A stretch of 60,287 nt of DNA, the filler included. It is 4 parts of 4 records of this genome, joined end to end, with 100 filler letters (N's around TTAATTAATTAA, not from the genome) between each part and the next. Parts side by side here need not be neighbours in the genome. Positions count along the whole stretch, not along the records: positions 16,569 to 42,701 come from SRR20825019_1959; 3 more parts are not named here. The stretch is one strand, 5' to 3'. Positions within the stretch are counted from its first letter, which is position 1, and every line of letters begins with the position of its first letter. A model generated the notes under the pieces. It saw only the letters and a list, made by a program, of their open reading frames with translations. It had not been told where the DNA came from and made no database searches. A program made the translations under genes and the position numbers. Positions 16,569 to 44,910 of the stretch are shown here, piece after piece.

Positions 16569-16854
16569 TCGCAGGAGGCAGGAGGCGCTGGCGCCCCCGC
16601 CCCTCCCCCCCCCCGGCAATCATGCCCATCCGGCAATGGCCCACTACCGCCCCGACGAGTGAGCCCGGCTGCTCACCAGTGCCGCCAATGGACATTGGAG
16701 AGCCTCAGTGCTCCGATCCGATGGTTCGGTGTTGGAAACTTGCCGCTCCTTTGCCGACCGGCCGATTTCGGCGCAAGGAGTTGTGGCTGTTTGCATCCAG
16801 GAGGACACTATCACTGCGCAACTGTCAGTAAAGGAGTCTACCATACGAGCAGCG

Positions 16855-16864
16855 TATATAAATA
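16855..16864 (+). promoter_or_regulatory. TATA box candidate for msrB
   Basis: TATATAAATA about 40 nt before ATG 16896; CCAAT and ATTGG near 16685-16700. Confidence 0.45.
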
Positions 16865-16895
16865 CCCGCCGCAACTGCCATCCCTGAAAGAAGAG

Positions 16896-17618
16896 ATGAC
16901 TAACAGAGCAACTCAAAGGCTTGCTTCACTGTAAGTGCAAGTAGTATGAACAGTTCTCATGTACTTAAGAGTGTGGTGCGATCAGGTTACAAACTTCAGG
17001 TTTACTCTCTGTAACTTCACGACAACCTTCACATCAAGTCCTTCGCCCAACACTAATTAGACCTTTCTTTACCATGGGTTCTAGTGATTCCAAGACCATT
17101 GACAACAGCAGTGAAAGTATGACCATCTCTCGGACTAGAGATAACCCCAGGCTTACGTTTTAAACTTCAGATTTCAAAAATATCAAGAGAGTTAAGAAGA
17201 CTGAGCAGGAGTGGAAGTCCGTGCTCACCAAAGAGGAGTTTTACGTGTGTAGGAAAGCAGGCACGGAGCGTGCATTCACAGGAAAATACCATGACTGCAA
17301 GACGAAAGGGACCTACGTGTGCACTTGCTGCGACCATCCACTATTCAGCTCGTCCACAAAGTTCAACAGTGGGACCGGTTGGCCGTCATACTTCGCTCCC
17401 TATGCTGATGACAGTATAAAGACAAAGGCGGACTACAGCTTCGGAAAGCGTATTGAGGTCTTGTGTGCGAAGGTGAGGATGCTCGACGCCACAGATAGTG
17501 TAGCTCACAGTAGTTGCAGTGTGATTCCCACCTGGGCCACGTATTCGATGACGGACCGATGCCTACTGGGAAGCGCTTTTGCATCAACTCAGTTTCTCTC
17601 AAACTCCGTGCCGAGTAG
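16896..17618 (+). CDS. msrB: eukaryotic peptide-methionine (R)-S-oxide reductase MsrB, 4 exons
   Basis: Exons 16896-16930, 16986-17116, 17171-17472 and 17520-17618 splice in frame through GT-AG introns of 55, 54 and 47 nt. [36 protein letters not shown]. Confidence 0.92.
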
Positions 17619-17770
17619 AACTAGGGTTCCTCCTTATACCTTAGAGATCATATACGGAGATCATCTTTTGTACCCTATATCAATGAAGTAGCCATTGTCT
17701 ATGTTATCTATGGTGCCCTATTTGCTGAGGAACTGGAAACGCCCCACATTGGTAGTATGGACTGCAAATT

Positions 17771-20591
17771 CTATGCATCTTCATGGGCCTCCAGGTTCTT
17801 GGTCATCTCAATGGTTTCCTCGACTATCCTGGACTGCTCCTCAGCTATTTCCACAATCTGAGCATAACCCCGAGTCAGCATCAGCATGAGTCAGGCCAAC
17901 ACAGAGTTCAAGCACTCACAGCTTCTACTGCGTCAGGAATGTCCTGAAAAGCCATCCCATCCCACCTCGGTCCCAGTGCCCGTTTCAAGACCTTCTTAGC
18001 ATGTTTCCGGCACCCAGTCAAAACGAATATAATCCCCCTTTTCTTATACTGCGCCAGAAGCTCTGCATGATGCATGGGTGCCAATTCAAATCACAGCAAA
18101 CGCGACGTTACTACACACCTTCAATGGTGTGAATGCCATCGCTATCAACCGCCGGCACAGAAGACATGTCCAGTACCACAAATCGAAGAGGTGGCTTCTC
18201 TAACCATCTGAGTTCTACATCCTCGAGCTTCCATTTAAGGAAGGCCGAGTTTAAGTCTGCGCATGCAAACATGAAGTCAGACACATTACCGCGAAAACAC
18301 ATATTTCAGTCACCCACATGACAATGAATCTTCAAAACCAAGTATGATGGTATGTGGGAGGGGCTCTGGGGCATAAAACTCTTTCATATCCTACAATCAT
18401 CTTGGTTAGATCGTCGTTTAGAGCCAATGAATATTTCTCGCCAAACCTGATACACCGTGGTCCCTGGAATGCATCCAATCACACGAGTGTGAGGTCTCAT
18501 ATTCCGGTAGCTAAGGCTCATGAGTGAACAGATTGCCCCAACCGCTAGACTCATGGACACTCCGAAAACAATTGCAGATAAAAACGTAAGAATCCACACT
18601 AGCGCGTCCCGAGGCTTTGCCTTGAATAGAAATATGAACTCCTTGAAGTCAAACAGAGTCACACAAGTAGCCATCAATATCGCAGCAAGGACACACTTCG
18701 GTATGTACTTGAACACAGAAGTGAGGAATGAAAGGGCAATTGCTACGGTGATGACACTGATCAGGGATGCGATCTGGCTCTTGCCTCCACACGAGTCCAT
18801 AACAGTGGAGCGGGTCGCGCTGCCACAATGGGGATAGCACTGGAATACAGAAGATACAAGATGGGTAATTCCAAGCGCCCGAAGTTCCTGGTCGGGATTG
18901 ACATCGGTTTCATGCTTTGATGCTAGACGCATGGCAACTGGGTGAGACTCCAGGAACATTGCTACACAAAGGGTGATGGCCGCTGCAGGTACGCAGTGAG
19001 TGGTAATTCGCATCATCGAACCAACGTGCTTACAGGGAACCAGCAAGACAAACCGATTGTAATCTAAACCCGCAACGGGGTTGATTGGAGATGGAAATCC
19101 ATTCGGGATCTCACCGATGCTTTTTAAACTGAGCAAAGGCTATATCAGCTTGAAAGTCACGCAAAAAACTTCCAAAACCTACTCGCTCTTCCCATCGGAT
19201 AGCCATCCCACTAATATCCCGACAACCAATACCACCAGCTGTGCCATGCCTCCTATCCACTTGAACGGTGGGTATGGAATATATTTGCAGGCTAGCAGGA
19301 ACACAAGGCATATGAGTCCGAATAAGAACGGTTGCCAATTGACACTGCCTTTTGCAATCTGCTCGGCTATCACGATCCATGACCTGTACACCTTATCTTC
19401 ACTGCTCGTGGTCAGCCCCAGGAAGTTCTGCAATTGGCTCGTGCTTAGAGTTACGGCTAGACCACTCATGAAAGCAGACAGAACGGTGTGAGATATGAAG
19501 TTTGTCAATGTCTACATCGCCACTAAGATTCCATTTCGAATTAACACGCCACTACGCCACTTACCCCAGCCCGCAGAATGCCTGCAAGGAAGTAGAATAT
19601 GCCACAGAGGAACGTCAGATTCATCATGTGCTGTGTATACTCCTCCTGATATTCCGCATAATCATCAGGAAGCGACTCTTTGTCGGGGGCGGGCCCATTC
19701 ATCGCCTTCAGCATCAGTTCTGCCGCAACAATCGACGATAGTGATGTTGCTCCAACATGAAGCTGCGCCGATGTCCCCAACAAAATGTACACGAATGCTG
19801 GCACCATGCATGTATACATGCCCATAACAGGCTCTAGTTTGGACAATGTTCCATATGCAAATCCCCTATTCGTGGCCACTGACATTAGAACAAGGAATAG
19901 ACATGTCTTCTGGTATACATACTGAGGTATGCACATGCAGCCCACCGTGATCCCAGCAACGATGTCCGGGAATATCATCTTCAGTCGGTACTTTGGCAGC
20001 CATAACAAAGGAGGAAATAATCCAAAGATAGTCTTTGCTGAACACGCACTGCGTTTGTGGGGGGGATTCCGAGGGGTGGGCTCATTGTCTATCTCATAGA
20101 TGTTGGCTGTGTCGCGCGATGTAATTATACACAAACCGTACCTTCTTCGTCATAGTCAGAGTCTGTATCCTCCGTCCTCGGAACGACTGCATGAACATAC
20201 TCGTCACCGCTAACAGACCCGCTTTGCGACAGTCGCCGACGGCCAACTAACGAACGCGCCCTGGGCCTCGGATCGCTTGACGTACGAGACGAACGTGCTA
20301 GGTGTGTGGTGAGCCAGGCAAATTATACTTCATCAAGTTCTTACACAAGCGTGACCTCTCCTTGAGGGGATTTTCGAAAGACTGATTTGATACAGTCTGC
20401 TCAACCAGTTAGTTCCGACAGAAAGAGAGCTTCGTGGTGCATACCGATAGAATGCTCATGCGCTGGTGTGCCGAACCGGGCACACTCTGACGAGGATTGA
20501 TTATCTGGTGATTCGGCGCAAAAAGGGCGTCGCTTCGGCTCGGCGACCCCAGGAGGGGGCTGCCCAGACCCTTGCTACTGGAAAAAGACAT
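17771..20591 (-). CDS. eukaryotic SLC26/SulP anion transporter with STAS domain, multi-exon
   Basis: WLPKY...DIVAGITVGCMCIPQ|GFAYG, NFISHTVLSAFMSG, NPDQELRALG, STAS VLDMSSVPAVDSDG. Short GT-AG introns; start and stop inferred by hand splicing. Confidence 0.85.
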
Positions 20592-20761
20592 TCGAAGGAG
20601 AACACCTTCAGCAAGCATTCCTGTAGTCAGCTTTTCCAATATTTAGCGACAGTAAAGACATAGGCGAGCCAAGGTTATCGGGCGCTGCCGCAGCAACAAC
20701 GGCAACCTTAGTGAGTGTTGTCAGGCGAAAGGAAACATGCGCCTCGTCTGGCGACTGACAA

Positions 20762-21330
20762 GTGCCCCCGGGCCAAGGACCCGCCGGCGCGCGGGGGGCG
20801 TCGGCCGGGCCGCCGGCACCGGCCCGCCCGGGCGCGGGGGCGGCGGCTGGGCCGTCGCGTCGTCGGGACGGCCCGGCGTCGGTCGCCGCGGCCGGCGGGA
20901 CCGGCGGGCCGGCCCCGGCCCGCCGCCGACTCGGGACGGGGCGCACGGACGTTTGACTCTGAACTGAACACTGCCCGCGCAGTGGTGTTCCAAAACTTCA
21001 AAGACGATTAATCTGAGGTCATAATAAATCATGAGTTAATCAGCGGTTAAAAATTGTTCAGACCGTTATATTCGTGAATTGACACGGGCCCGGCAGCAGG
21101 GCGGGCGACCGGCGGCGTGCCTCGGCCACTCCGTTGCCCGCGTGCAGTGCCCTCTCAACTGGGCCCGGCCTGCCAGTGGTGAGCGCCTTGTCGAGTACGG
21201 TGCCCACGGCACCCTGTGGGTGCGGCCTGGCCCTCGGAATAGCCCGAGCCGAGCGTCGGCCCGGAGCCGGCCGCGCTCGTGCGCGACGGCTGACGGCACC
21301 GCTGACAAGGTGACGCTGCGGCTCTAGTTC
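20762..21330. promoter_or_regulatory. GC-rich island pair with AT-rich core (about 21000-21080) between divergent genes
   Basis: Runs such as CCGGCGCGCGGGGGGCGTCGGCCGGGCCGCCGG flank ATAATAAATCATGAGTTAATC. Confidence 0.6.
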
Positions 21331-21511
21331 CAAGCTGCCAGAGTACCCGACCGGCAGCAAGCTATGCCGTCAGGTTTCATCGCGCGCTTCAACAGTCATA
21401 TGTATGGATGCCACACCAACCATCAAAAACTGTCAAGCGCAGACCAGGGTGGAATGCAACACTCTTGAACGAGAATTAGTTAACAGTTTAGATATTTAGG
21501 GAGTGGTCAAG

Positions 21512-24500
21512 ATGCCTAAACTACCTCCTGCCCCGGTGGTCATAGCATCAGAGTAAGGATGGGCGACGCAGAACTTGTCATTGTAACCTGACCACGTTTC
21601 ACAGCCCGCGACCACTTAAACACCCCCATGGCACCTTCCGCTCTGTCCTGAGCAGTGGCTTGGGAAAGCAATTAGTCTCTGGTCTCCCATGGCCTGCAGC
21701 GCCACCCACAACTGCGCAGCTCAGACTCGCTCAGGAGCAAATTGAGTTTGATTTGGATGACTTGTCAGTTGCCCACCATCAGAGTTTGGGGGCATCCGCA
21801 AAGTATGCGGAGGATGACCTTAGAATCCAGTGGCATGACGCCGTGGAGCGTGCACTGCTGACCGCCACTCAGCTTCTCCTTCAAGGTGGGTTCTTTTCAT
21901 ACATGCTGTCATTGTATTATGCTAATGGCAGCGCTGCAGACGAGTCAGATGGCGCCTTTCATTTACTGCAGCTGGTAGAGAATTTTACCACAAAGGAGTT
22001 TGAACAGTACTTTCCTGAGTCGATTGAGTTCCGCGCCATAGCACTGCATGTTGAGGCTTATTATTATAGAAAGAGGAACAAGCTCAACGCGGCTCTGATC
22101 AACACGGACAAAGCCATGGCGGTAGAGACTATGTCCAAGAGCTCTCGAGAGCCTGGGTATGGCTGGTTCCATCTTGGCATCATTCATTCCTTGATGGGTC
22201 AGCATGACGAGGCACTGCTGATGTACGAAACGGCAAGTCGATACTATATTGAACAGGAACTTGAGATGAAGTGCAATCGGGCTGAGGGTGAGGAAGGGGA
22301 AGTTCAGCCTTTGGATGAAAAGGTGGCGGAGTATTTCTCGAGCATGTTGGCCATCACATATCATAATTGCGCCACTTCTCTTCATTGGCTTGGCACGGAT
22401 CCGCCAAAGGCAATGCACTACCACGAGAAAGCGCGGTTGCAGGGTAGTACCCTTGCTCAAGACAGCCCCCTAGTGCAGAAGGTCTTGGTGGGTGCAGTGG
22501 AAGGAGAAGCGTACACCAAATCTCGTCAGGAACGGAATGATCGTATTGCCGCAGAGAAGGCAGCTCGCGGAGGAGGGAATTTCAACGAAATGAAGACGAC
22601 CACCGAAAATAGCGAGGCTTTCCTGCCTGCCATTTCTAACCGGCCAGTATCAAATGTTCCATCTTCCACCGTCCCCAGCATTCCGCCGAGAACGCCTTTG
22701 GGGGATTCAACTTGTTCTTTGAATACCAGTTTCCGTGATGACAACATGGTTCCCGTGCGTCCAAGCACAGCCCCGGACAAGAAAGCAGTTGGACTGCCCC
22801 AAAGACCACAGTCCAGACAACTGAAGGCAAAGGGAGATCTTAAACTGCAAACTTGGGTAGACACGGAGAGTTTTCGGAGTGTGGCATCTTTTGCTTCTGC
22901 GAAAGAACCCGGCAAGATTCCAGTGGCCAGGCGAGCCTCCGCCCTAGCAGCGGTGCCATCTTCAATTGGAATCATCAAGCGATTGGGAGGCACGTTTTCA
23001 TCTGCTAAAGAAGTCCATCACCTCATGATGGTTGTCCACGACCAAGAACCTAACACCAGCGCTGAGGCGAAACGTGGGATGTTGGCCAAGGTTTTTAAAG
23101 AGGCAATGCAGAAAAGTAACAGTGCGGGGTCTCCCCGAAGCAAGCGCGCGGCAATGTCACAGATGCTGAAAATTCACGGCACCAAATCGCCGTTTCAGCA
23201 CTATGATGTTGATGGTGAGTCGTACCCACTGGCTAGGGTCATTGATGAAAACAAGAGATCGCGGGTGATGATGAAGCAGTTCAAGATGGTAGCTGACGAA
23301 ATCGAGGCCGGCAAGAAAATTCTTGCCTTGTGGAGGGATTATCAGATGCTGCTGAGGCCATTCCGACGACTCAGAAAGCGCAGAATCAATTGGGGAGCCT
23401 TTATCGTGCAACGATGGTATCGCCAAGTTAAGGCAGACCGCAAAGTCACTGAGGTAATGTATAGCAGAGCAAAGATGCTTGCCAGAGTTCTGGCGTGGAG
23501 TTATCGTAGGCAATATAAGATCACATTGAAGACGTACGCTTATCTCAATCGCTTCCTGCGGATGGCGATGTCACAAAAACGTGTTTGGAAGTACATGGTG
23601 CCTAGTGCCAAGAAAATACAAGCCACTGTCAGGGGATCCGTGCATCGCAATCTGCACCTCAAGAGGATTGCTGCGGGAAGGAAGATTGCCGCGACAATTA
23701 AGGCATGGATTAGAAGGAATCACGATGGAGACCTTTATCAGCCAGCAGTTACTATTCAAAAATGTGTCCGAGGAATGATTGCTCGTGGGGAGTTAAGAAA
23801 AAAGGATCGCAGCGCCAGAATTATTGCAAGTGCTTATACTGCTCACAAAGAAAGGGAATTCATGGCTGAATTGAACACTCACATGTCCAAGTTCCAGGGG
23901 TATTTCTTCCGCTACACAACCTTACAGGAGTTAAAATTCCGGAATATGAAAGCAAGTATTATACAGGCTGGTATGCGGGGATGGAAGGTCAGAAAGATGC
24001 TAAGAAGAACAAGAACCTCCATGCTTCGTCTACAGGCCCATGTTAGACGGAGGCTCACTCAAAAGCAAGTAGCAGATATGAATGTCAAGGCCATTGTTGT
24101 CCAACAGTACATTCGAGGCTTCATAGCACAACGGCGTGTGCAGAGGTTAAACTTCCTGGGTACAACATTACAACGCTGGCTGAAAAGAAATTGGGCAAAG
24201 CAAAGTATAGGGACTGACAAAGATGCGTGTGCTGCAAGGATTCAGGCATGGTGGGCGGTGGTGAGGGTCAAGAAACACTTCTGGCGGTGGGTACAAGCGC
24301 AATTGCCTTCAAGCGAAGTGATACAGACAAGGTGGAGGGGTTACGCAGTGCGAAATATGATTGACAAGTGGGATGCGGCTCAGAAGGTGATTGCGAGGCG
24401 ATGGAGGACATATACTACCCAAAAGAGAACCAGCTTCTTCCTGTACGCCATTAAGATGTTGACCAACCTTGCCAAAGGCTTAATATTTAGAAGAAGGTAC

Positions 24501-27153
24501 CTACGGTTTCGTGAATCAGTTTTGAAGATACAATGCTGGTGGAGAATGAAAAGGCAACAAGTGAGGCTCAAAAGACAGAGAGAAGCAGCTCGAATTATTC
24601 AAACATTTATGAGATGCGAGCTTATGCAGTTGCGTTACGAGACTGTTGTGAAATCAGCAATTCGTACAATTCAGTCTTGGGGGAAATGCTGGGCGCAACG
24701 CATTCGGTACCTTCGGGTACGGTCTGCAGTAGAATCAATTCAAATGGCGTACAGACAGCACTTGGCGAGAAAGCGGGTAACGAAAATGAATGAGGCGGCT
24801 ACCTCCATTCAACAATTCTTCCGGTGCCGAGGGTATAAGCAGATTGCGCTGGGTCATGAGGTGAAAAAGAAGGTTCTGATTTCAAGGATTGACCATTTCC
24901 TGTTAGAAATGCAGCAGCGCTTCGAAAAGCTTAATCGCGAGTTCCAAGAGAAACAGGATGCTCTTCGTAACGGCAAGTGGGCAATGGATTATATATTCAA
25001 GCTTGCCGCATTTGAATTCGATGAAGAATGGGGAGAGACCTATCGAACTGACTGCCGCAGTGTGGCTGATAGGAACTCTGAAAGCATTATTCGTCGGGCG
25101 ATTCAGAGGATTAACGGACCGAAGTACATGTTCTGTTTGGACATCATGTATGATATATCCGATGGTGCTGTCCAGCGATACCTTGAGCCACAGGCTGCCG
25201 GTGTTATACAACGCCATTTGAGGAAGATGATAGCGATGAGAAGAGTTCGAAAGAAACTCCAGGCAATACACAAGATCCAAAACCATACTAGAGTATTTCT
25301 GGCGAAGGACAAAGCCGATCGCTTGCGCTCCAGTAACTATGTCAGCAAGCGCATAGTTGATGACGTCTGGAGGGATGCAGTCAAGCGAGCTGCATTGCAT
25401 CGCTTAGACAGGCTTAATCTCAAGATTAAGTGTGCCACTCGAATTCAAGCTAGGTTTAGGGGTATGCAGGGGCGAGCTCGAGTCAGGTTAGCAAGGCAAA
25501 ATCTCGAAAGATTCAATGAATGTGCTGCTCAAATCCAGAGGGCATGGAGATGCCATGTTGCTAGGCAATACTTGGGACTGCTGAAATACCAAAAGGGCCG
25601 GGCCATTGCGATTCAAAGGCTTTATCGGGGTCACCAAGCTCGTGTCAAGTATGAAGAAGCCAAAGCTGAAAGAAAAAAGAAGACCATTTCTGCAACAAAG
25701 ATTCAATCCACATTCCGTGGTCATATTTCTCGCAAGAGGACAAAGCCCCTGTTCGATGACCTCTCTGAGCGCAAGAAATGCGCTACAAACATCCAGAGAG
25801 TCTATCGTGGTCATCAAGGACGCAAGAAGGCTGCGGCAAAGCAAGTAGAAGTGATGAGGGCTCGATGTGCCACGCAGATCACCCGAATTTGGAGGGGCAT
25901 GATGGGACGCAGATATGCAAGGAGAATGAAGAAGATCATTGAGGAGAAGCATAGAATGGCCAGAATAATCCAGGCGTACATGCGCAAATGGCTTGTGTAC
26001 AACCGAATAAGGAAGATGGCGAGGGCTGCTTTCGTTATTCAAACCGCATGGCATGGATGCAAGGGCAGAATGCGCTACCGCTATTATCGGAAAATGCGAC
26101 GATGTGCGAATGAAACGACAGATGATGTCCTCGAGAAGGTGTTTGACATGATGTCTACCAGGATTATGAAGGCCCGTGAGGGAAAGGTCATAAGCAAGGA
26201 GCTCATCACCGAATTCATCGAAAGAGCTATTTGCCTGACAGACCCAAGCTACAGGCGCCGGCGCAAACGCTTAAACAATATGTACCAGCGTGGCCTCGGG
26301 ACATCCGCAATGCCAGAATTGAAGGGTGTTAAATTCGATATCAGCATTGACGAAGGTGAACTATCGAGTGAGGATGAGCTTGAAGAATGGGAACTGGAGC
26401 TCATGAAAGAAGAGTGAGTGCTGTCGCCTTGAGTTGTCGCTATTGTTTTCTGATGTCTATTGCAGGGAAATGGAGGAGCCGCTCGAGAATGAACAACCCG
26501 AGAGTGGAATAAGCCGAACGGAGAGTAAGATAAGCATCGGGCGGGCTGAAAGTAGGACTAGCATAGTGTCGAGAGATTCGTCGCAGTCAGCCAAGGAAGC
26601 ACTGAAGAAGGCTCGTAGGCGAAGTCAAAGCTTATCCACCATCGCTAATATTGGGCAGCCTGCGAGCGCCCAAAAAGAGAACCATAAGAGTGCGAGCAAC
26701 CTATTACGACAGGATGAGCGATCAGAATCGCCCGCCGCGGTCCGGACGGAAAACTCCCAAGAGGAAGCCAAGAGCCCCGCACAAGTGCTGGCGGAGCAGC
26801 CACCCGACTACACGAAGAGGTTTGACACGGTAGAGAGGGGTGCATGGGAAGACGAACTCGATCTTCGAAACCTGGATCCTATGCAGCGCAGGCGGAGTGA
26901 CCTCGCGTTTGAGGATCTTGCTGAGCGCAGCTGGGAAGGAATGGCCGAGCGCAGTTGGGAGGAAGAATTGGATGCAAAATCCCGGCCTGTCTCGCCGGAA
27001 ATGCCCGCTACGTCTTTGCTCTCGAATGTTTCCAAGCCGATACGATATGGTGTCGATGGCTCGGAGACCCCCGTGGAGGAAATCAAACGGCGACCCCCCC
27101 GTCGACAAGTGTTGCGAATGCTCTACAAGAAACGCGGTGTTCACAAGTGGTAA
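21512..27153 (+). CDS. very large TPR-like plus multi-IQ-motif (calmodulin-binding, ASPM-like repeat) protein, 3 exons
   Basis: Introns 21553-21604 and 26414-26465 (52 nt each) join the ORFs in frame. TPR-like GWFHLGIIHSLMGQHDEALLMYE; roughly 20-25 IQxxxRG-like motifs. Confidence 0.8.
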
Positions 27154-32229: not shown

Positions 32230-33150
32230 CCCTGTCAGTGCTTGTTGGCGCCCGACAGGAGTGACAGCAAGAGAACAACCGCCACTACTGAGTCATCGTA
32301 GGGCGGGGCGTGGACTGGGGGAGGCCGCTCGGAAAGCACTGTGACGGCCCGACTCGTCGGAGCGCATTGGCATACCTTGGACAAGAACCAGCAGTGAGCT
32401 GAGCAGCCAGACGTGCGCCCCGGCTCGGCACACCGCAGCGCTCTGACCCCTATAGCTGTCCGGGGTGGAGTGCTCCGCGGCTCGCCACTCAGCGTAGCCT
32501 TTCCTCCCGCGGGTGGCAAACCGACTGAGGAGAGTAACTCACAGTCCGGACCGAGGGGTGGCCTGGCGGAGCCGGGCGCCGTCCGCCGGCAGCCGGGTCG
32601 CGCGCCGACGTCAAGCTCGCCCGTGATTGTTGACAGGAGGATCGCCTCACTGCTACTTCAAAAATGAAGTTTGGCGGGACGGTCCTTTGAATACTCATTG
32701 TATAATGGACAGTTGTAAATAGGTACATCTATATAACCAAATATCCTGGTAAAACGATCATGAAATCTACTCGAACCTTTTCTTGGTCTTGCTGTGCCTG
32801 CCGCGGGCAGCCGCCCGCCCGGCCGAGCCGGCGGCAGTGCGTCGTCCGGCTGGGCGCCAGGGCCGCCCGGCTGCCGGCGCCCGGCCGGGCGCCGCACGGC
32901 TGCGCACCGGGCCTCGACGTCACTCACTGAGTCCGCCGCGTGCCGGCCCGGCCAGGGCCCGGCCGGCGGCCGGGCTGACGGCGGCGACTGGCGGCCCGCC
33001 GCCCCCCAACTGGGTTGGAGCCTCTGTCGCGCTGCACTGCCGGGCAGGCTACTCCGCGGCACCGCCTCGGCACGCTGCACCGGCGGTGAAGTGAAAGCAA
33101 CTATTTGCTCGGAGCTGGCCATGCAGCCGGGCGCCTGCCCTGAGCCAGAC
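32230..33150. promoter_or_regulatory. GC-rich island pair with AT-rich core (about 32660-32785) between divergent genes
   Basis: Composition switch visible by eye; no credible ORF. Confidence 0.6.
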
Positions 33151-33210
33151 TGCCTTTTGCATCTGTGTATGAATAAAGGTTTCGAGCTATTTCAAGATAT
33201 TGTATAGAAA

Positions 33211-33810
33211 ATGAGAGTCTTCCTACTTCTCTGTATTTTAGGGGTAGCACTCGGGGTCAACGTAGAGTTGAGGGGCAAGCTCTCTGAAGGTTCTACAGAG
33301 ATGACAACTACCGGAAGCTATCCCGGGGTTTGCTTCGGGGTGAAATGCACTGGGGTGTGCTATTACAAGAAGACGGATAACTCGAAGGCGTTTGTGTGCA
33401 ACGAGTTCGGTATGGTGGCATCAGCAGACAAGCTTTTCGCAATGGAAAACGAGATGAAAGGGCTTGTTACTTGTGCGTCTATAGCAGACTGCAAGGAGTC
33501 TTACTGCAAGCGTTACCCTGAAGCTACCGAGTGCAGACTCAACAAACTGTCAAAGGCTTGTGTAGATGCAGAGTGTGACGGTACTTGCTATTACACTATT
33601 ACATCTAAGGGAAGGATGTTTATGTGTGAGAATGGGTCGGACTTTGCATCGAATATGAGCCAAATCTTTGTTCAGCCAGGACCTTTGGGAAAGAGCGGGA
33701 AGCGGGAGCCAGTGAAGTGCGACACCCGTCGTGCTGGCGGAGACTGCCAGTTCATTCACTGCAGCCAGCAGTCCAACAGCGCGGACTTACCAGAGTGCAG
33801 GACCATGTAA
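33211..33810 (+). CDS. secreted cysteine-rich protein with two tandem 8-Cys repeats
   Basis: Signal peptide MRVFLLLCILGVALG; repeats CFGVKCTGVCYY...ECR and CVDAECDGTCYY...ECR. Confidence 0.75.
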   Translation: MRVFLLLCILGVALGVNVELRGKLSEGSTEMTTTGSYPGVCFGVKCTGVCYYKKTDNSKAFVCNEFGMVASADKLFAMENEMKGLVTCASIADCKESYCKRYPEATECRLNKLSKACVDAECDGTCYYTITSKGRMFMCENGSDFASNMSQIFVQPGPLGKSGKREPVKCDTRRAGGDCQFIHCSQQSNSADLPECRTM

Positions 33811-34106
33811 TGTAAAGTACGTCAACATGAGGTAATTCAGGCTTTGCATAGGTCGTACGACGAGTGCTCAGAGAGCATTCAACACATCTGTGGGGCATAG
33901 AATGCGACTGCGAAGGGAGTACTTTACTCAGCACATAGCAAACACTCTACTAACTTCATATCCGACCCTAGGGCTTTCTCACCCCCTTCTCAGTCATTCT
34001 AGCACCTCACCATATGTACACAAGTGAGCCAGATCACTACCTAAATGATTGTAACTGCCTACTCCTAGCATCCTCAGCCAACTTTCCAATGCCTTACCAT
34101 GGCATG

Positions 34107-35028
34107 CTATTCGGTGACGGTATATTTAGCAAACAGATTCTCAGGTTTGGTCATGGCCTTGAACTCAAGATTGTTACCGGATGGGTCCTATGAAGTAGCA
34201 ATATGATACGACACTGTTAGGAAGAATCATCTACATGCTTCTTGTTGAACCTGCCCCACCTTGAAGAACATTGTCCACTGCTCACCCGGCTGGCCCTCAA
34301 AGCGCAGGTGAGGCTCAATGATGAAGCTCACACCTGACTTCTTGAGGTGTCCAGCGAGGCGCTGAAACTCTTCGACAGACAGTGCACATCCGAAGTGCGG
34401 TACGGGGACATCATCACCATCTGAAGCCAAGTTCACAAGTGTTAGTACAGCAGACCCTGCTGGTCCTTGCTAAATACAATACCAACTGGGTTGTAGTGAT
34501 CGGTAGCCCGGTAATCTGGCGTAGTCAAATGCTATGATGACACAGGAATCAGGCTTCAACATTCTCACAGGCCAAGACACAACATACTGCGACAATTTGG
34601 TGCCTGCAGTTAAAGGTGAGCTACAAGTCTTCTGCATTACAAGAGAGCCAAATATCATACCCGTATAGGTTGTAGTCAATCCAGTTCTTTGACGAACGCC
34701 CTTCCTATCCAAGGTTCAGTCCCAACCAATCTGAAAACCAACTTGCACACGACCAACCTCACACTGCAAGACATTTCCATAAAACTCTCGCGCCTTGTCC
34801 AAATCATGGACCTGTGGAAGCACAAGAAACAAAGCAGTAAGTCAAACATAGAAGCACCCTAGTTCTCACGGAAGGCTCACCGGAAACGCATGATGGAATG
34901 GATAGAGGGCACTCAAGTGCCTCGAAAACCTTACCGAAAGTGGCTATGTTGGCTACAGTTAGCACAGTTCATTTCCTAAAGAATAACCAGACACAGTTCA
35001 ATTCTACCTTGACGAATGCTGAAAGCAT
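34107..35028 (-). CDS. VOC/glyoxalase-superfamily protein, intron-rich, possible mitochondrial presequence
   Basis: Hand splicing gives MLSAFVK|PLSVRFSRHLSALYPFHHAFP|VHDLDKAREFYGNVLQCE|EGRSSKNWIDYNLYG|HQIVA|H...NPV|DGDDVPVPHFG...GEQWTMFFK|DPSGNNLEFKAM. Confidence 0.85.
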
Positions 35029-35124
35029 GTAGTCTTTTTCAGTGTGTTATTGTTCAGAACTGTATATGTGCATCCCTGATATCTATCAGACTTGGTGGTG
35101 GTCCCAGTAGCCCAAGCAAATGGT

Positions 35125-35645
35125 TCCGGGGACGCGTTAGCGGTCGACGGTCACTGGTCCAGCGCAGGCCCCGCCGGGGGGCGCCAGGCGCGCCACCGCA
35201 CGGCCGGGGCGTTCCGTTCAACCTAGCTGACTCCGTCCCGGCCCGGGGTCCTGGGCTCGGGAGCCGGACCGGCGAGCCGGACGCGGCCGCCACGGCGCCC
35301 GCGGCGGCACCCGCCTGGCGGACCTGGCATCAGGCCGGGCCGGGGGACCGGACACCGGCAGCCCGGCCACTCGACCGGACCCATCACTTCACGGGCCTGG
35401 CGGCGCGGCGGCCCAGCCGAGCGCCGCGGGGGCGCGCCCGGCGGCCGGCCAGGCGCGTGCGCCCCTCACGGCTCCACCGCCCGGCCCCGGCCCTTGCCGG
35501 CCCCGGTCGCTCAGGGGCCGGGCCGGGCACGGCTGAGCGGCCGGGCCGCTCGGTGCCCCGCGTCGGTGGTGGCTCGCGGGGCCGCCAAGCCGGCCCTTGG
35601 CTGCCGTGGGCCGGCCCCGTACCGGCGGGGTCCGGTCAGACGTCA
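35125..35645. promoter_or_regulatory. GC-rich island between divergent VOC and lpxD genes
   Basis: About 500 nt almost entirely G/C, bounded by AT-richer flanks. Confidence 0.6.
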
Positions 35646-35712
35646 ATAGTAGGCAAAGGGTAATTACTTAACTCAGGAGAGGTTATACTTCGGGTCATAT
35701 AACGTGGAGGTC

Positions 35713-36754
35713 ATGTGGAAGTCCGTCCTTCTACCATCTTCCAGGGTAAGTTTCTGTCAAACTTTGAAACTCCATCCCAGGTAACTGACTACTGACTTAA
35801 ACAGTGGGGTGGACTCTATATCTCTTCCCGGGGTTTATATATTTCGTGTCGCGATAGCGCGTACCACGTTCATCCTGGATCATATGTGCATGAGACGGCG
35901 ACTCTGTCTCATGGTGTTGTAATTGAAAGAGGTGCTAAGGTATCATTTTTTTTGCCCGAGTAAGTTGCTAGAATCTCAAACTTCTGTTGTGAAGGTCGGT
36001 GCCGGAGTTGTGCTCGGTGCAAATTCCGTAGTCGGTTCGGGTGTGAGTATAGGCCACAACTCGAAGATTGGATATAATGTGTCGCTATCCAACTGTAAGA
36101 TCGGATCCAACGTAGTCATTTTTCATGGAACATGCATAGGGCAGGTATGGATAAGGAACACATATGGCTCTCCATTTGAATGTAAAGTTGTCGCTCTAGG
36201 ATGGCTTTGGCCACAACATCGACCCACAAACTGGGGAGCTCCTGAAAAAGGAACAGGAGTTGTCTGTCGAAATCGGACATAATGTTGAGATTGGAGCAGC
36301 CTGCACTATAGACCGAGGCAGCTGGCGTAACACAAGCATAGGAGATGGGTGCAAGCTAGATAATCAAGTTCATTTGGCACATAATGTTGTTGTCGGAAAT
36401 CATTGTGCTATGGCTGCTATGGTTGGGATCGCAGGTATGTAGCGTGTACCACAGTGTCATCGTGCTCACTGACGCTGCCAATGATAGGGAGCGTTACCAT
36501 CGGTAACCGCGTTCTTGTCGGGGGGCAGGTTGGTATCGCACAGCATCTGCAAATTGGAGACGATGTTCATATCGCTGCAAAGAGCGGTGTGATGCACAAC
36601 TTGCTGGAAAAAGGAAAATATGGTACATATACGAAAGCCGTGCTTTTGCGAGCCTAACCATCTTCCAGGCGGTGTCCCCGCTATCCCACTTGTACAACAT
36701 CACAGACAAACTATTGCCCTAAGAAAACTAGCGGCAGTGTCGTACACAGAATAA
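35713..36754 (+). CDS. lpxD: eukaryotic UDP-3-O-acylglucosamine N-acyltransferase LpxD, multi-exon
   Basis: Hexapeptide repeats, CIGQ|DGFG, VEIGAACTIDRGSWRNTSIGDGCKLDNQVHLAHNV, GQVGIAQHL, AAKSGV, GVPA; interrupted by GT-AG introns. Confidence 0.88.
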
Positions 36755-36832
36755 GCTGAGTTTATAGATACAAAAACACGCCATGGAATTGTGCTTCTAC
36801 AAAGCCTCTGCACCGACAGCTCACGCGGGGCG

Positions 36833-38844
36833 TTATGAAGGTCTGCCGGGCGACATCGGATCGCTCTTGATTGTTGTTGCTGTCAGCACAGGGCTATCAA
36901 CTGGCATTTCTGTTTTCTTGTGCCAGCTTGCCATCGATTCGTCATTTGATACTGCACTTAAAGCACTGCCCTGCTCCCGTATTGAAGCCCGTCCAGTGTT
37001 CGGTGTCATCATGCGGTTGCCATCAGCATCCTCCGAGTCTCCTATTGAAACTTGCAGTGATTTCCGAAGCTCTGGTATTGTGGGTAGAGTAAAAGATGAT
37101 TGTGCAGGTAACTAATTCAAGATATCAGTAATTCGCCAGCAGAGACAACACTCAGCTTACCGTAGCGGATGCATTGGGGTGGGCCTTGTTGTGGATGTTC
37201 ATAAATGATTTGGCTGCAACCAACGCGGGAACAAAGAAAACCATCATATCGCCTTGTGCATTTCCACACGCAATCTGACGGCCGTTTGGAGATGCTGCAG
37301 TCGCATTAATCCAACCAAGGAACCCTCCAGGGCCTTCAACGCAGCCAACTTCTTCTATTGCTTCTGCTATATCATATATGCGCACCCTGTGGTCTCTACA
37401 TCCTGATATCACACGGAAACCACGCGAAGCGAACGCGCAAGTCAGAACCCAGTTACCATGATCCCCTATGATGGCAGTTGGCGATGATGGTGTCGCAAGA
37501 TTCCATAGCAAAACCTTTCCATCTTCCGAACCGGACAAGATAAATTGTCCATTCGGAGAGAATTGCACTTGTCTGTAGGGACATGGTCAACAATGCCATC
37601 TCTCCAGAAGGACTTCAGGGCGCTCACCTTACTGCCCCATCATGACCCCCAAGCGTATGTAACTGCTTAAGCCCCTTGACCTCCCACACATGCACCAGCG
37701 CATTGTATGTGCCAGTGGCTATCTGCCTTGAGTTGGGTGACCATGCAATAGTATATACCAGCTGTCCATCCTGACGACCTTTAGACATTCTATGTGCACT
37801 TTTCCTCCGGAAGTCAATGGCCCACACACTAAAGACACCCTTCCTGCACACATGGTTAAGGACCACACCCCTTACTCCTCGCACAGGCACTCTGACCTTC
37901 CAGCACATGCTAATCGTTTCGAATTAAATGAAAATGAACAACACGAGAGCTCGTAATCTTCGTTAACAGTGACCTCAGGACTTGATACCTTGGATATCAT
38001 GATTCCAGCCTCTTTTTCTCTTCTAAATATTTCCATGTGTACATTCCAAACCAGTACAAGTCCCTCCTGAAGAAAGATTCAGCCCTGCACAAGTAAGAGC
38101 GAGTCATTCCTTTCCTACCTGGTGACAAGTTGCAAGGTATGCAGAGTCGCCGGAATATGAACATGAGATAGGAGGTCCGCCAGAGAAAAAAGAACCCGGG
38201 TCCACCTCGGCCCTCAATTTGTGTGTATATGCATCCCATATCAATATCGATCCGTCGGCACTGCATGACGCTATTGCCTGAGCATCGGGTGAGAAAGCCA
38301 CACTTGTAATGGCGTCTTTGTGCCTCGAACTTCTAGTGCCTTTCAGATGAGTAATTTCTGAGTGTATTCTGAAGTCGTTGTTGTGGTCTCTCTTTGCCCC
38401 CCTGCTGGGTTTTCCCGATGACCAATCTCCCGCCCTGGTCATATCTAGAGGATTCGACATAGCGAACATGGCACCAAGAGAATATCGCCTTCCCTGTCGT
38501 GCCGCACTAGGGAAAGGCATAGTAGGATCTATGGCATTTGTCACTAAGTTAACTTGGGCCGCGGTTTGTGCATGGTCGGCTGCATGACGAGCCTTTTCCT
38601 CCGCTTTCTTTCGCATTTGCTGAGCCTTCAGCTGTGCTCGGGCATCATAAGCACTCTTCCTGCTCTGCTCCGCCTCGCGTTCTTCCTCCGCCCGCTTTAG
38701 GCGCGCTGCTGTTCGTTTAGATAGGGGCGATTCGCCAACCGGCTTTGATCCACTTGGAGGGCCTCGAGGAGACGGACCACCAATACTATTACTCCGTGGA
38801 GTGGTCAAGGAAGACCGGGGGCTGCGAGCAGGAGAAGGTGACAT
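36833..38844 (-). CDS. WD40-repeat protein with low-complexity termini, multi-exon
   Basis: HKDAITSVAFSPD...ILIWD, QFSPNGQFILSGSEDGKVLLWN, HGNWVLTCAF; short introns. Confidence 0.8.
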
Positions 38845-39039
38845 GGCCACGGCCCAAACGTACTGACGCCCTTCCTCCCCTTTCCTTGCATATGTTGAAG
38901 CCAAGAGTTCACACTTACTTCTAGAATAGAAGCGTAGGGCCCATTTCGCGGTAAGGGTGGCGTTATTACGATGGCCTAGCGGGCACGGGTGGTCACAGGA
39001 GTTCATCACCGTGGCAATGATAGGTTGGTTGGCTTCAGT

Positions 39040-39810
39040 GGGGCGGCCGCGCCACGGAAACCTATGGCACTCGGCTGCGTGACCGACCCGGCCCCCGGCC
39101 GGACGATCCGAACGGCCGGTCCGACACGGCGGAGTGAGTCGCCCAGCCCGGCCGGAGGGAGGTGGGAGTCCGGTCCGGCACACGACTTGAAGTGCCCGTA
39201 CCGCTCCCATCCGAAGCATAAACAACCGGTCAGTGATCGATGAGTCCATCCGTCACTGATGCAGTACGCCTCGGGTGCCTTGAAGGCGTACGCCCAGCGC
39301 AGGCCCAGAGCGGCAGCGCCACCGTTACTGTTCATGATTCGGAGTCCCATTATACGATATCACGATAGGTTAAGGTTTGTGGGCAATTATAAGACTTTTT
39401 ATGGTTACATATCAGTGGGCTAAAATTAGTCGCCCGGCCGGCACTTGATGGCCGGGCCCGTCCCGAGAGTCTGATACCACACCGAGGCACCGCCCGCGAC
39501 TCGCCGTGTTGGTCAGTCTCTGACGGCCGGGCGGTGCCAGCCGCCCGAGCGGCGCCATGCGGACCGCCGGCGGCGCGCGGCCGGCCGCGTGCCGGGCGTG
39601 CCGTGCCTGACCGGGCGGCCGCCGCCCGGGCCGCCCGCCGGCAGCCCGGCCCGCCGGCCACTGGCACGGCCGGACCGGCGCACGGCCACGCTCATCATAC
39701 GGCATGCGGGCGGCACGGGACGGAAGCTCACTCTCGGCCAGCCAACCCGGCGCGGTCCCCGGGTGGCCGCCCAGGGAGTGGCACACCAGCCGCCGAGACG
39801 CCCAACCCGT
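39040..39810. promoter_or_regulatory. GC-rich island pair with AT-rich core (about 39345-39430) between divergent genes
   Basis: GC blocks flank ATTATACGATATCACGATAGGTTAAG...CAATTATAAGACTTTTTATGG. Confidence 0.6.
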
Positions 39811-40031
39811 AGCTGACTTCTCATCAGTGTCGCACTCAAGTGCACTCCCAAGTTCGGGGCACGCGGTAACTTGCACTTTGTAGCTTACTCTCATTCTGGC
39901 TGAAGCACATAGGGATAGCGATGGGGGGCCACACGTCACGGAAAGCTACAAAGTCGGACATGTTGGTTATATCTATGAGAGTTAACTGTCACAACAAGAA
40001 TACCAGTGTTTTCTTACCAGGTTCTGAAAGG

Positions 40032-41078
40032 ATGGACTCTCCCACGTCCTCATCAGAGGATGAAGGGAGTGTCCACGGGGACTTATATGGTACTGAACGG
40101 GATGCAAACGGCCTATGGTCTTGTTCATTTCCTGGTTGTGACAAACAGTTTAAGAAGCGGGGGCACCTCGTCAGTCATGGCTTTGTTCACACTGGTGAGA
40201 GGCCCTTTGTGTGCATGGTGAAAGGGTGTGGGAAGGCGTTTACCCGAAGCAACCACTTGAAAAGGCACTCTTATAGCCACACGGGAGAACGTCCATATAA
40301 GTGTGATTATCCCGGCTGTAGTGAGTCTTTTGTGGATCCTACTCACCTCAAGCGCCACCAAAGCCGTGCTCATGCCCCAACTCTTCCTTATCGATGCAGT
40401 GAAGAAGGATGTGAGGCTGGGTTTGCCAAGAAGAAACAATTGAGTATGCACGTGATGGAGGTGCATGGAAAGAGTGGTCTATTCGTCTGTGGTATTGAAG
40501 GTTGCGGACAGACTTTTTCTACTGCTCAAAGGCTTAAAAAGCATTCCGCAGTGCACTCGGAAAAAAAGAATTATATATGTGGATCGGAAGGATGCAGTGC
40601 TGCGTTCCGGCTGCACAAAGAGCTGCGCGCCCATATTCTCGCCGAGCACCCGTTCAAGCGAGAGTTTCCTTGCACTTCATGCGGAAAATCATTCAAACGC
40701 AAATCAGATCTTGTCATGCATATTCGGATGGTACACGAAATTGCAACGAGGGTTCAGTGCCCCGTGGACGGCTGCGGATCATCATTCGCTAAGAAAGCAA
40801 ATCTTGATGCACACATGCTATCAGCCCATGGCGAGAAGAAGCCATTCTTGTGCGCACTTTGTGGCAGTGGATTTAGCACAAAACAGAATATGATCAGGCA
40901 CATGAATAAGAAGCACCGGAACAGTCATGGAGAGGACGAGGTTCCTACGGTGGATTCTCCCCAACCGCTGAAAAAAGCTCGCAAAGGGAGTGCAGAGATT
41001 TCAATACCATGTTCACAACAGCATTCTCTGAAAGAAGTGGATATGGTTGTTGACTCGTCGGCAGTATTAGTGCGTTAG
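40032..41078 (+). CDS. nine-finger C2H2 protein, transcription factor IIIA-like
   Basis: Nine consecutive C2H2 fingers, mostly C-x4-C, with TGERP linkers after fingers 1 and 2. The ORF is open from 39921, and a CAG acceptor at 40018-40020 suggests the start is 40032 or lies in an upstream exon. Confidence 0.75.
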   Translation: MDSPTSSSEDEGSVHGDLYGTERDANGLWSCSFPGCDKQFKKRGHLVSHGFVHTGERPFVCMVKGCGKAFTRSNHLKRHSYSHTGERPYKCDYPGCSESFVDPTHLKRHQSRAHAPTLPYRCSEEGCEAGFAKKKQLSMHVMEVHGKSGLFVCGIEGCGQTFSTAQRLKKHSAVHSEKKNYICGSEGCSAAFRLHKELRAHILAEHPFKREFPCTSCGKSFKRKSDLVMHIRMVHEIATRVQCPVDGCGSSFAKKANLDAHMLSAHGEKKPFLCALCGSGFSTKQNMIRHMNKKHRNSHGEDEVPTVDSPQPLKKARKGSAEISIPCSQQHSLKEVDMVVDSSAVLVR

Positions 41079-41353
41079 GGTTTTGGTGAACTGATTTAGC
41101 ACGAGAATGCGGCATGTCGTCGCAGGATTTGGTTCTGTTCTGACGTGCAAGCTATTGTTCATATGGTAGCCTCCTCATCACAGCAGTATTCAGAGAAGCA
41201 TTCAGAATGCAACACTATATTGAGCTAACTGTTAGTAATTTATTGGTTTGGATATAACTAAACGTAAAACACCTTCTTCTACTAGTTGTCTAGAGTTATA
41301 ATATACAAGGCATACAATGCCATCATATATAATATGATACTATGTTAGGGTAC

Positions 41354-42436
41354 TTAATGGGCCACCTCTACAAGGTTGTGGGCAAAGCTATTCTGCCTCG
41401 ACCGACTCCTAGAGCCGGGCAAATGCTGCCTGACCTTACCCAACCCAGAAAACATAATATCCAAACTCTTGTAGAAGTCTGACAAAAACGAGCTGCTCTT
41501 TGCGCCAAGAGGCCTTGGGGGAGGCATGGAGTTGATCTCGTCATCCTCATCCTTCCTCGCTTGTCCTTCCGAAATATCCATGTTGCACACTTGATCAGCT
41601 AGCCTGTTGTCCACCATGTTTGAAGAGCCTGGCATGCCGTCATCAAGATCGTCAATCCAGTCCCAGTAGTCCTGGGTGGCGTCTGCACCAGTAAACGGGA
41701 TATCATCTGCGCTCCCAACAATCCTCTTAACTTCAAGCTCGCCGCACCAAGAAGGCTCCTCCCATGTGCTTGTGTCCCGAGCCATAGAGCTCTCGTCAGC
41801 CTCCAAGTCATGAGAGGTGCTGGCCTCGGCGGCTTCGAGGGTCGTCGATGCTACGTCACCTTCAGGAGACTCGGTCTCAACCTCAGCGGCTTCGCTCGTC
41901 ACAGCAGAGTGAGCCGCAGCGGATGACGAAGCAGCAGCAGAATAGCCTGTAGAGAACGCCGCCGCCGCAGAATACGATGCCTCCGCAACTCCAGTCGTGG
42001 TTGACTCCTCCGCATCCCTTTCGAAATCTTCTTCTTCACGAAGGTGGGTTCTGATGGTCTTCATTAGCTTTGCTCCTGGGCGATGGCCGCCCGCGTACTT
42101 CTTTCGTAAGGAGGAGGAGTTCTTCCCCATAGTCTCCATAGCATACTTGCACACAACATCCTCGTCTGTTTCGGTAGCACCCTTGTTGCTAATACGCTCC
42201 GCAATTTCGTTGAGCTCTGTCCCAGAAAAGGCGAACCGCTTGGCCACCTTTTGTGAAGAAGTGGAAGAAGGAGTCTGTTTCGTGATTTTTTTCTTCTTGT
42301 TGATGTGTCGATAAAGTGTTGCATGACTCAACCCGTATTGCTTGGCAGTTTTGCGAAGACGGCCTGTCCTCAAAACCTCTTGCTCTGCGAGGTCAAGCAA
42401 AGTTTCTCTGTCCATGTTCTTGTAGTTCACTGTCAT
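41354..42436 (-). CDS. psq/CENP-B (pogo-type) HTH DNA-binding protein lacking a DDE domain
   Basis: LRKTAKQYGLSHATLYRHI HTH, a second CENP-B-like helical region, then an Ala/Ser/Glu-rich acidic tail. Confidence 0.65.
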   Translation of the reverse strand: MTVNYKNMDRETLLDLAEQEVLRTGRLRKTAKQYGLSHATLYRHINKKKKITKQTPSSTSSQKVAKRFAFSGTELNEIAERISNKGATETDEDVVCKYAMETMGKNSSSLRKKYAGGHRPGAKLMKTIRTHLREEEDFERDAEESTTTGVAEASYSAAAAFSTGYSAAASSSAAAHSAVTSEAAEVETESPEGDVASTTLEAAEASTSHDLEADESSMARDTSTWEEPSWCGELEVKRIVGSADDIPFTGADATQDYWDWIDDLDDGMPGSSNMVDNRLADQVCNMDISEGQARKDEDDEINSMPPPRPLGAKSSSFLSDFYKSLDIMFSGLGKVRQHLPGSRSRSRQNSFAHNLVEVAH

Positions 42437-42645
42437 TTTCAATATATTAAAAGTGTAGTGCGAAAAAGATTTCAACTGTAAACTTTCTGTAAATTATTGT
42501 CGTTTTCAAAGGTTTGTAACTTTGCCAAGTCGGAGTCAAAGTTTGAAACTTATCAGATAATTTCCTCTATATATTGTGTTTGAATGTATATTTGTTTCCT
42601 TCTCTTCCAAGTCTCGAAGAGTCATGGGTCGCAAAGATGTTGACT

Positions 42646-42701
42646 GGGTTGGGGGCCGGGGGCTAGGGGCCGGGGTGGGTGGGTGGGTGGGTGGGGGGGG
42701 G
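42646..42701 (+). repeat. G-tract / (GGGT)n simple repeat at contig end, G-quadruplex-capable
   Basis: GGGGCCGGGGTGGGTGGGTGGGTGGGTGGGGGGGGG. Confidence 0.8.
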
Positions 42702-44898: not shown

Positions 44899-44910
44899 GC
44901 GACCCCATCC

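Follow-up and report, generated by a model that had tools for sequence, protein, structure and literature searches.

Strand alternation and GC-rich islands between divergent genes on a contig of a compact eukaryotic genome

Neighbouring genes of Ectocarpus are biased to opposite strands, and divergent pairs account for 61.7% of the genes at such regions; divergent spacers have a median of 409 bp, and a nucleosome-depleted region is shared by pairs less than 600 bp apart, which are regulated independently (PMC7784034). In other brown algae, neighbours likewise tend to lie on opposite strands, with close divergent pairs and short spacers (bioRxiv 10.1101/2024.02.19.579948). Close neighbours in chromerids are arranged head-to-head more frequently than chance alone would give, which is a statistical excess only and is given as 'data not shown' (PMC4501334). 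The share of head-to-head genes in typical eukaryotes is about 10% (PMC4089025), and the bidirectional promoters of vertebrates are located in CpG islands, with start sites that are by definition less than 1 kb apart (PMC2648788, PMC2559893). Here we analyse the contig SRR20825019_1959, which occupies positions 16569-42701 of a 60,287-nucleotide window (all positions are counted along this window). Its ten genes alternate strictly in strand, and islands rich in guanine and cytosine (GC) lie in the gaps between divergent neighbours.

The contig resembles Ectocarpus and the other brown algae in that its neighbouring genes lie on opposite strands. It differs from Ectocarpus in that this holds for all nine neighbouring pairs, and in that the 5' ends of divergent genes are 648-1132 bp apart, compared with the median spacer of 409 bp; in the parts at hand, the accounts of Ectocarpus and the brown algae mention no GC islands. 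Like the chromerid genomes, ours is a compact protist genome with close head-to-head neighbours, and unlike them it combines strict alternation with GC islands, neither of which is described in the part of the chromerid account at hand (PMC4501334). All genes on the contig are arranged head-to-head, versus about 10% in typical eukaryotes (PMC4089025). The literature searched, with subscription journals outside its coverage, describes no eukaryote with strict alternation and GC islands, only opposite-strand bias and head-to-head excess. Overlapping mRNAs of neighbouring genes were reportedly described by Williams et al. in PNAS in 2005 for nucleomorphs and microsporidia, in which spacers are very short. 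Our contig is similar to them in that neighbouring messenger RNAs (mRNAs) overlap at short spacers; to our knowledge, those genomes have neither strict alternation nor GC islands, and are far more reduced and AT-rich. The contig differs from these cases in that the alternation is complete on the sampled stretch, in that the islands are located between the starts and not around them, and in that the GC contrast is extreme. The layout is tidier than that described for other compact genomes.

Orientation of the ten genes

In order of position, the contig carries msrB (17074-17618, +), an SLC26/SulP anion transporter gene (17908-20620, -), an IQ-motif/TPR gene (21512-27153, +), a gene for an OFD1-like centriolar protein (27257-32071, -), a gene for a Cys-rich secreted protein (33203-33810, +), a VOC/glyoxalase-like gene (34107-35053, -), an lpxD-like acyltransferase gene (35701-36754, +), a WD40-repeat gene (36833-38887, -), a TFIIIA-like gene with multiple C2H2 zinc fingers (ZnF; 40005-41078, +), and a gene designated 'HTH' (41354-42558, -). 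The strict + - + - + - + - + - order claimed by the sequence-only reading is thus confirmed: 9/9 neighbouring pairs alternate, which gives five tail-to-tail pairs and four internal head-to-head gaps. If strands were independent and random, nine of nine alternating pairs would have P = 0.002; this value refers to one contig, which was picked after the fact because it looked odd. With a flat prior, the same count puts the alternation rate above 0.74 at 95%, an estimate that ignores the selection of the window.

The spacing expected from the sequence, about 80-300 nt from stop to stop and about 0.7-1.2 kb from start to start, agrees with our measurements. The tail-to-tail gaps (17619-17907, 27154-27256, 33811-34106, 36755-36832, and 41079-41353) measure 289, 103, 296, 78, and 275 nt, respectively. 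From ATG to ATG, the head-to-head distances are about 892 (predicted), 1170, 685, and 1188 nt.

Small genes missed in the gaps could break the alternation, as the sequence-only reading itself had pointed out. We ran this check on the gaps and found none, and both candidate breaks were removed. The open reading frame (ORF) at 26470-27153 (+) is not a separate gene. A 52-nt intron, with GTGAGT at 26414 and TTGCAG ending at 26465, joins it to the IQ frame as the last IQ exon. The ORF at 36783-37115 (+, 110 aa), a candidate gene following lpxD, is antisense to the terminal WD40 exon at 36833-37111, as shown by a transcript joint at 37111/37161. ORFs inside the GC islands have flat GC content at the three codon positions (e.g., 0.76/0.74/0.73). 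Codon-position GC was used alone here, since a codon-usage score trained on long genes could not tell known exons and antisense frames apart. On the contig, Rfam yielded no family at gathering score or at E up to 0.5, and there was no tRNA.

Transcript ends and GC islands

The orientations were compared with two small public runs made from a single sample, here called X1 and X2; they total 48 and 20 million letters and contain 0.51 and 0.10 of the sampled words, respectively. Their contigs are spliced and carry adaptors of the template-switch type, which suggests that they are complementary DNA (cDNA); the kind of run is not on record, and the cDNA nature is our own reading. The comparison covers 22702-42701. 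The msrB and SLC26 genes and the 5' end of the IQ gene lie outside it and rest on ORFs, family matches, and predicted introns. At least 15 splice joints were found, and those listed comprise five in lpxD, six in VOC, and four in WD40, with skips of 46-128 nt. The joint borders read GT..AG on the plus-strand gene lpxD and CT..AC on the minus-strand genes VOC and WD40. Small shifts turn 14 of the 15 listed joints into canonical introns; the fifteenth has 15 letters between its sides and resolves into a 16-nt micro-exon with canonical sites on both sides. The verified introns (n = 16) are 46-72 nt long, with a median of 55 nt, and the spliced frames of VOC (162 aa), lpxD (257 aa), and WD40 (600 aa) are open.

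Ten loose contig ends read one and the same adaptor, ending ...GAGTACATGGG(G). It was named by no tool, and we take it to be the template-switch oligo that SMART-type cDNA synthesis adds at the mRNA 5' end. The adaptor precedes the plus-strand genes at 33203 (Cys-rich), 35701 (lpxD), and 40005 (ZnF), and its reverse complement follows the minus-strand genes at 32071 (OFD1), 35051/35055 (VOC), 38887 (WD40), and 42558 (HTH, in both runs). In all seven genes whose 5' flank was compared, the adaptor side agrees with the ORF strand, and the first ATG after the tag opens the frame of the gene, leaving leaders of 8-122 nt. Splice joints or 5' adaptor tags show the direction of seven of the ten genes, namely OFD1, Cys-rich, VOC, lpxD, WD40, ZnF, and HTH. 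Stretches lacking cDNA cover, the islands among them, are not taken as evidence on transcription, and contig depth does not rank the genes.

The contigs also bear out the proposal that convergent neighbours have overlapping 3' ends. In two of the four convergent pairs compared, both genes lie on a single cDNA contig bearing a 5' adaptor at each end, and stop codons are 78-296 nt apart. Record 3 of X1 (2750 nt) extends over 35701-38887, i.e., lpxD and WD40, with the introns of both strands removed. Adding the lpxD exons, the uninterrupted segment 36668-37111, the exons of WD40, and one adaptor at each end gives its full length. Record 4 of X1 (2587 nt) extends over 40005-42558, i.e., ZnF and HTH, also with adaptors at both ends. 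Because a 31-mer assembler joins opposite-strand mRNAs only if their 3' parts share sequence, the lpxD and WD40 mRNAs overlap, and so do the ZnF and HTH mRNAs. Among the pieces listed, none spans IQ/OFD1 or Cys-rich/VOC in a way that settles overlap. The poly(A) signals AATAAA and ATTAAA are absent from both strands of the five tail-to-tail gaps, and the organism seems to use another 3'-end signal. As an observation on the transcriptome itself, the assembler of X1 and X2 merged convergent neighbours, giving single contigs that bear 5' adaptors on either side; such fusions will mislead gene catalogues built from them.

GC islands are present in 4/4 head-to-head gaps and in 0/5 tail-to-tail gaps (exact P = 0.008). 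The SLC26/IQ gap contains island 1 (20709-21368; 660 bp, 69% GC, blocks up to 94%), which is interrupted near 20950-21070 by an AT-rich trough. Island 2, in the OFD1/Cys-rich gap (32249-33148; 900 bp, 67% GC, blocks up to 92%), has its trough at 32625-32770, and island 4, in the WD40/ZnF gap (39009-39848), consists of two blocks of 69% and 75% GC, reaching 92%, around a trough at 39325-39410. These troughs, which thus split three of the four islands, are about 100-130 bp long at 32% GC. Island 3, in the VOC/lpxD gap (35089-35668; 580 bp, 78% GC, up to 96%), is a single block without a trough. Both contig ends are cut within similar DNA: the start, upstream of msrB, is GC-rich (16569-16728; 70% GC, 84% in the first 50 bp), and the end, upstream of the HTH gene, is G-rich (42625-42701; 75-84% GC). 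Windows of 50 bases in the islands reach 90-96% GC, versus 50% for the rest of the contig, and the island edges are sharp, as GC climbs there from 40% to above 80% over some 50 bp.

Three GC motifs are in threefold excess in the islands, with 49 copies of CCGGCC (z = 7.9), 42 of CCCGGC, and 37 of CCGGGC compared with 15 expected for each under a first-order model. The islands do not look like a mobile element or repeat family: they are not copies of each other and have no terminal inverted repeats, and they share only matches of 20-41 nt at 63-90% identity. Local alignments between islands score at most 20.5 (z up to 5.6), which is the level of motifs. Separately, the heptamer ATCATGA (core palindrome TCATGA) occurs once in each of the three AT-rich troughs, at 21028, 32757, and 39332, with 0.085 shared 7-mers expected by shuffling. 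As the contig has nine copies of it and the whole window shows no enrichment, it is only a weak hint of a site common to the troughs.

In vertebrates, a CpG island is longer than 200-500 bp, has high GC content, and has an observed/expected CpG ratio above about 0.6. The islands on our contig fall in this range, with 580-900 bp, 67-78% GC, and ratios of 0.97-1.13 (1.01 over all islands). The other property of CpG islands, their contrast with a CpG-depleted, methylated bulk, is not seen here, where the ratio outside the islands is 0.82 and only mildly below 1. They are GC islands, and not methylation-escape islands, because the rest of the contig is barely CpG-depleted.

One bidirectional promoter unit had been proposed for each divergent pair. 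This proposal is partly supported, as a shared GC island lies in every one of the head-to-head gaps, and head-to-head orientation itself holds for 4/4 internal divergent gaps. A single start region looks unlikely, as the mapped mRNA 5' ends are located 33-178 bp outside the islands on either side, each with its own AT-rich 50 bp upstream. These 50 bp have 28-44% GC at 7/7 mapped 5' ends, beyond which GC rises to 70-96%, and A/T-rich, TATA-like stretches are seen by eye near -30 in about five of the seven. We found no consistent G/C strand skew upstream of the mapped ends. Between cDNA 5' ends, the distances are 648 bp (VOC/lpxD), 1118 bp (WD40/ZnF), and 1132 bp (OFD1/Cys-rich), i.e., one of the three is under 1 kb, and the islands fill 75-90% of this space. 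Hence, each gap probably has two core promoters flanking a common island, rather than one shared start region. As with the bidirectional CpG-island promoters of vertebrates, two head-to-head genes flank a GC-rich island in which CpG is undepleted. Unlike them, the starts here are outside the island, behind AT-rich, TATA-like stretches, and two of three distances are above 1 kb.

Proposed layout and competing explanations

We propose that the genome may be laid out as convergent two-gene units, in which partner mRNAs end against or inside each other, and that these units are parted by GC islands of 0.6-0.9 kb. Beside an island, each gene would have an AT-rich core promoter to itself; the mRNA leaders are very short. 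The island could be a shared upstream region for both neighbours, or a nucleosome-bearing spacer or insulator; we infer a role as common upstream element or spacer. With such alternation, termination zones would face only other termination zones, so that read-through would never enter a promoter, as it would in a tandem layout with loose termination. Read-through does occur, as is shown by the overlapping 3' ends. One upstream region and one termination region would then each serve two genes.

We lean towards the reading that strand alternation is a rule or a strong bias of this genome and not a chance run. The wider version is tentative and, in our judgement, less likely than not: convergent two-gene units whose mRNA ends overlap would tile the whole nuclear genome, a CCGGCC-rich GC island would bound each unit and serve both flanking genes as common upstream element or insulator, and alternation would be close to 100%. 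Several points weigh against these readings. They are drawn from one contig, chosen after the fact, and no second contig of the organism was found. Both transcript runs come from one sample, and their cDNA nature and the identity of the adaptor are our own reading. The msrB and SLC26 genes and the IQ 5' end are without RNA support here, as the cDNA comparison starts at 22702. One of the ten adaptor tags (40770, in X2) is located inside the ZnF coding region, so a tag seen in a single contig is no proof of a true start; in addition, DNA so rich in GC could make reverse transcriptase terminate early in its vicinity. The length of the overlap between two mRNAs cannot be read from a contig that joins their genes. 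Finally, at 1118 and 1132 bp, two of the three 5'-to-5' distances are larger than the 1 kb usually allowed for bidirectional promoters.

A chance run appears somewhat unlikely to us. It would mean that the genome has no strand bias, or a mild opposite-strand bias (50-62%) as in other compact genomes, and that GC islands mark every promoter, including those of tandem genes. It draws on the small sample of nine adjacencies on one contig, whose probability is 0.002 at 50% alternation and rises to about 0.01 at 60%, and on the origin of the window in a very large scan; moreover, known genomes reach only about 60% in the parts of the accounts at hand (PMC7784034; bioRxiv 10.1101/2024.02.19.579948). 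However, the regularity of the contig goes beyond strand. The five convergent gaps are all 78-296 nt long, an island lies in 4/4 divergent gaps, and both contig ends break in GC-rich DNA. The lower bound of 0.74 on the alternation rate (95%, flat prior, window selection ignored) also speaks against chance. A misassembly, in which convergent two-gene pieces were misjoined at similar GC-rich sequence or amplification chimeras made inversions, is highly improbable. The head-to-head joins are backed by the genomic assembly only, no cDNA piece among those listed crosses an island, both contig ends are in GC-rich DNA, and the source runs amount to just 48 and 20 million letters. Yet the longest repeats between islands are about 40 nt at 63-71% identity, so an assembler would have no repeats to merge, and cDNA contigs independently confirm two of the tail-to-tail joins. 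Besides, a convergent pair reads + - either way round, so misjoins at islands would leave the five convergent pairs flanked by islands.

The islands themselves could have another origin, one that is compatible with alternation as a rule. They may be by-products of GC-biased gene conversion at recombination hotspots in promoters and have no regulatory role of their own, and alternation would simply bring two promoters, and with them the hotspot, together in one place. Hotspots at promoters with GC-biased conversion occur in other eukaryotes. The islands share base composition and short GC motifs and have no long consensus; they are not mutual copies and lack terminal inverted repeats, and CpG is undepleted in them (1.01, versus 0.82 outside). 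All of this would fit such an origin. The threefold excess of CCGGCC-type motifs and the sharp island edges look more like selected or motif-driven sequence, and we regard this origin of the islands as rather unlikely.

If alternation proves to be the rule genome-wide, this organism would offer the clearest natural example of a eukaryotic genome made from one repeating module, i.e., island, gene, overlapping ends, gene, and island. It would become testable why neighbours in compact genomes prefer opposite strands, and whether the avoidance of read-through into promoters drives this preference. The role of GC-rich promoter islands outside vertebrates could likewise be tested directly in a simple layout.

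Gene families and the source of the contig

ORFs were defined from stop to stop with at least 60 aa, and 191 of 191 on the contig were scanned against Pfam. Seventeen have a family at E up to 0.01, and 15 of these belong to seven genes. The remaining two are below the Pfam cut-offs, namely a match of an antisense ORF to EB1_binding and one of the Cys-rich ORF to CP12. The predicted introns of msrB, SLC26, and the 5' part of IQ are 47-54 nt long and have the look GTGAG/GTAAG...CAG. The msrB gene encodes 147 aa in an open frame (Pfam SelR, E 3.4e-29; NCBIfam MsrB, E 1.9e-31), with predicted introns at 17117-17170 (54 nt) and 17473-17519 (47 nt). The SLC26 gene has multiple exons; Pfam Sulfate_transp matches three of them, STAS is also present, and NCBIfam sulP matches with E 6.7e-43. 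Its homology covers 18120-20068 in tblastn with a relative of 33% identity, and its 5' end near 20620 is predicted. That 33%-identical sequence is the best relative of the SLC26 exon and gives no taxonomic lead, and an Atlas look-up yielded the family only. The IQ gene, with cDNA contigs over 23369-27370, has a predicted product of 1845 aa, with Pfam IQ at E 4.8e-14 and weak TPR; its predicted introns (21553-21604 and 26414-26465) are 52 nt each, and the spliced frame is open. Residues 1-700 of the product have no relative among proteins of 827-2632 aa.

The OFD1-like gene has a single exon (Pfam LisH_2, E 3.6e-9), with its ATG at 32041 and its cDNA 5' end at 32071. Its first 220 residues have 401 HMMER relatives, 123 of them at E up to 1e-10, with a best identity of 37%. 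The name OFD1 is carried by five of ten clusters looked up among these relatives. Taxonomically, the ten best OFD1 clusters among those looked up spread over a glaucophyte, green algae, molluscs, a nemertean, Diphylleia, and vertebrates, at 32-37% identity. An affinity with stramenopiles was considered after a word search with the OFD1 N-terminus gave two matches, the best of which is a labyrinthulomycete transcript at 32%, and was dropped after other groups were found to hold the top HMMER ranks.

The Cys-rich, VOC, and HTH genes have sub-threshold family matches only. Their reality rests on transcripts, which also fix their orientation. The Cys-rich protein (199 aa; cDNA 5' end 33203, ATG 33211) is documented by an ORF, a cDNA contig, and an adaptor tag, and has a signal-peptide-like start and two internal repeats of a Cys pattern. 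The VOC gene has eight exons encoding 162 aa, six listed cDNA joints, a cDNA 5' end at 35051-35055, and a weak match to Pfam Ble-like_N (E 1.6e-4). Its micro-exon at 34588-34603 (-), 16 nt long, lies between introns of 56 and 57 nt; X1 and X2 both have cDNA contigs that contain it, and the frame would close early if it were left out. The HTH gene, whose sub-threshold matches are to HTH families, is a single exon encoding 360 aa, with its ATG at 42436 and its cDNA 5' end at 42558 in both runs. Searches for solved-structure matches gave none for the VOC exon and none for the HTH protein.

The lpxD-like gene encodes 257 aa in an open frame with Hexapep matches on three exons and has five RNA-verified introns (46-59 nt), a cDNA 5' end at 35701, and an ATG at 35713. 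NCBIfam LpxD matches three of its exons in order, at profile positions 131-184, 185-262, and 260-311 of 345. A gene for an enzyme of the lipid A pathway carries five spliceosomal introns in a protist, and the match of its product to bacterial LpxD profiles (345 positions) begins near position 131. It seems to lack the N-terminal domain of bacterial LpxD, or to have about 55 unrelated residues in its place. The WD40 gene encodes 600 aa (Pfam WD40 on four ORFs), with four RNA-verified introns (49-55 nt), its terminal exon at 36833-37111, its ATG at 38844, and its cDNA 5' end at 38887. The ZnF gene is a single exon (Pfam zf-C2H2, E 1.8e-35) with its cDNA 5' end at 40005 and its first ATG at 40032, and its product aligns with the solved TFIIIA 8ffz_A over one stretch at E 2e-28. 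Searches of genome and metagenome contigs found no loci related to the ZnF protein.

The window is made of four contigs (1-9002, 9103-16468, 16569-42701, and 42802-60287) joined by three N44-TTAATTAATTAA-N44 spacers, and the feature under study is exactly the third of them (26,133 bp). The artificial spacer at 16469-16568 lies between it and the preceding contig, and that at 42702-42801 between it and the one that follows; both of these neighbours are bacterial. With a GC content of 59-68% and densely packed ORFs for typical bacterial proteins, the other three contigs, which are unrelated to it, encode TRAP transporter subunits, LysR and GntR regulators, peptide ABC transporters, and MFS efflux proteins, as well as a tRNA-Gln. 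A eukaryote and at least one bacterium are thus present together in the assembly, and the presence of eukaryotic DNA among bacterial contigs matters to users of that assembly. The third contig, with about 50% GC outside the GC islands, is eukaryotic nuclear DNA of a compact genome, as spliceosomal GT-AG introns of 46-72 nt are removed in its transcripts. It carries ten genes in 26 kb, and 78% of its length lies between ATG and stop. All three stop codons close genes on it, which indicates the standard genetic code.

The presence of OFD1 points to a flagellate or ciliated cell as the source. No collection searched contains a close relative of the contig genes, with best matches of 33% for the SLC26 exon and 32-37% for the OFD1 N-terminus, and the protein comparisons suggest a so far unsampled lineage of flagellated protists. 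Within 22702-42701, the genomic sequence and the cDNA contigs disagree at no fewer than 26 single letters, mostly by transitions, and by one 4-letter insertion behind 33948, which suggests allelic or strain differences between the sequenced molecules and the assembled contig.

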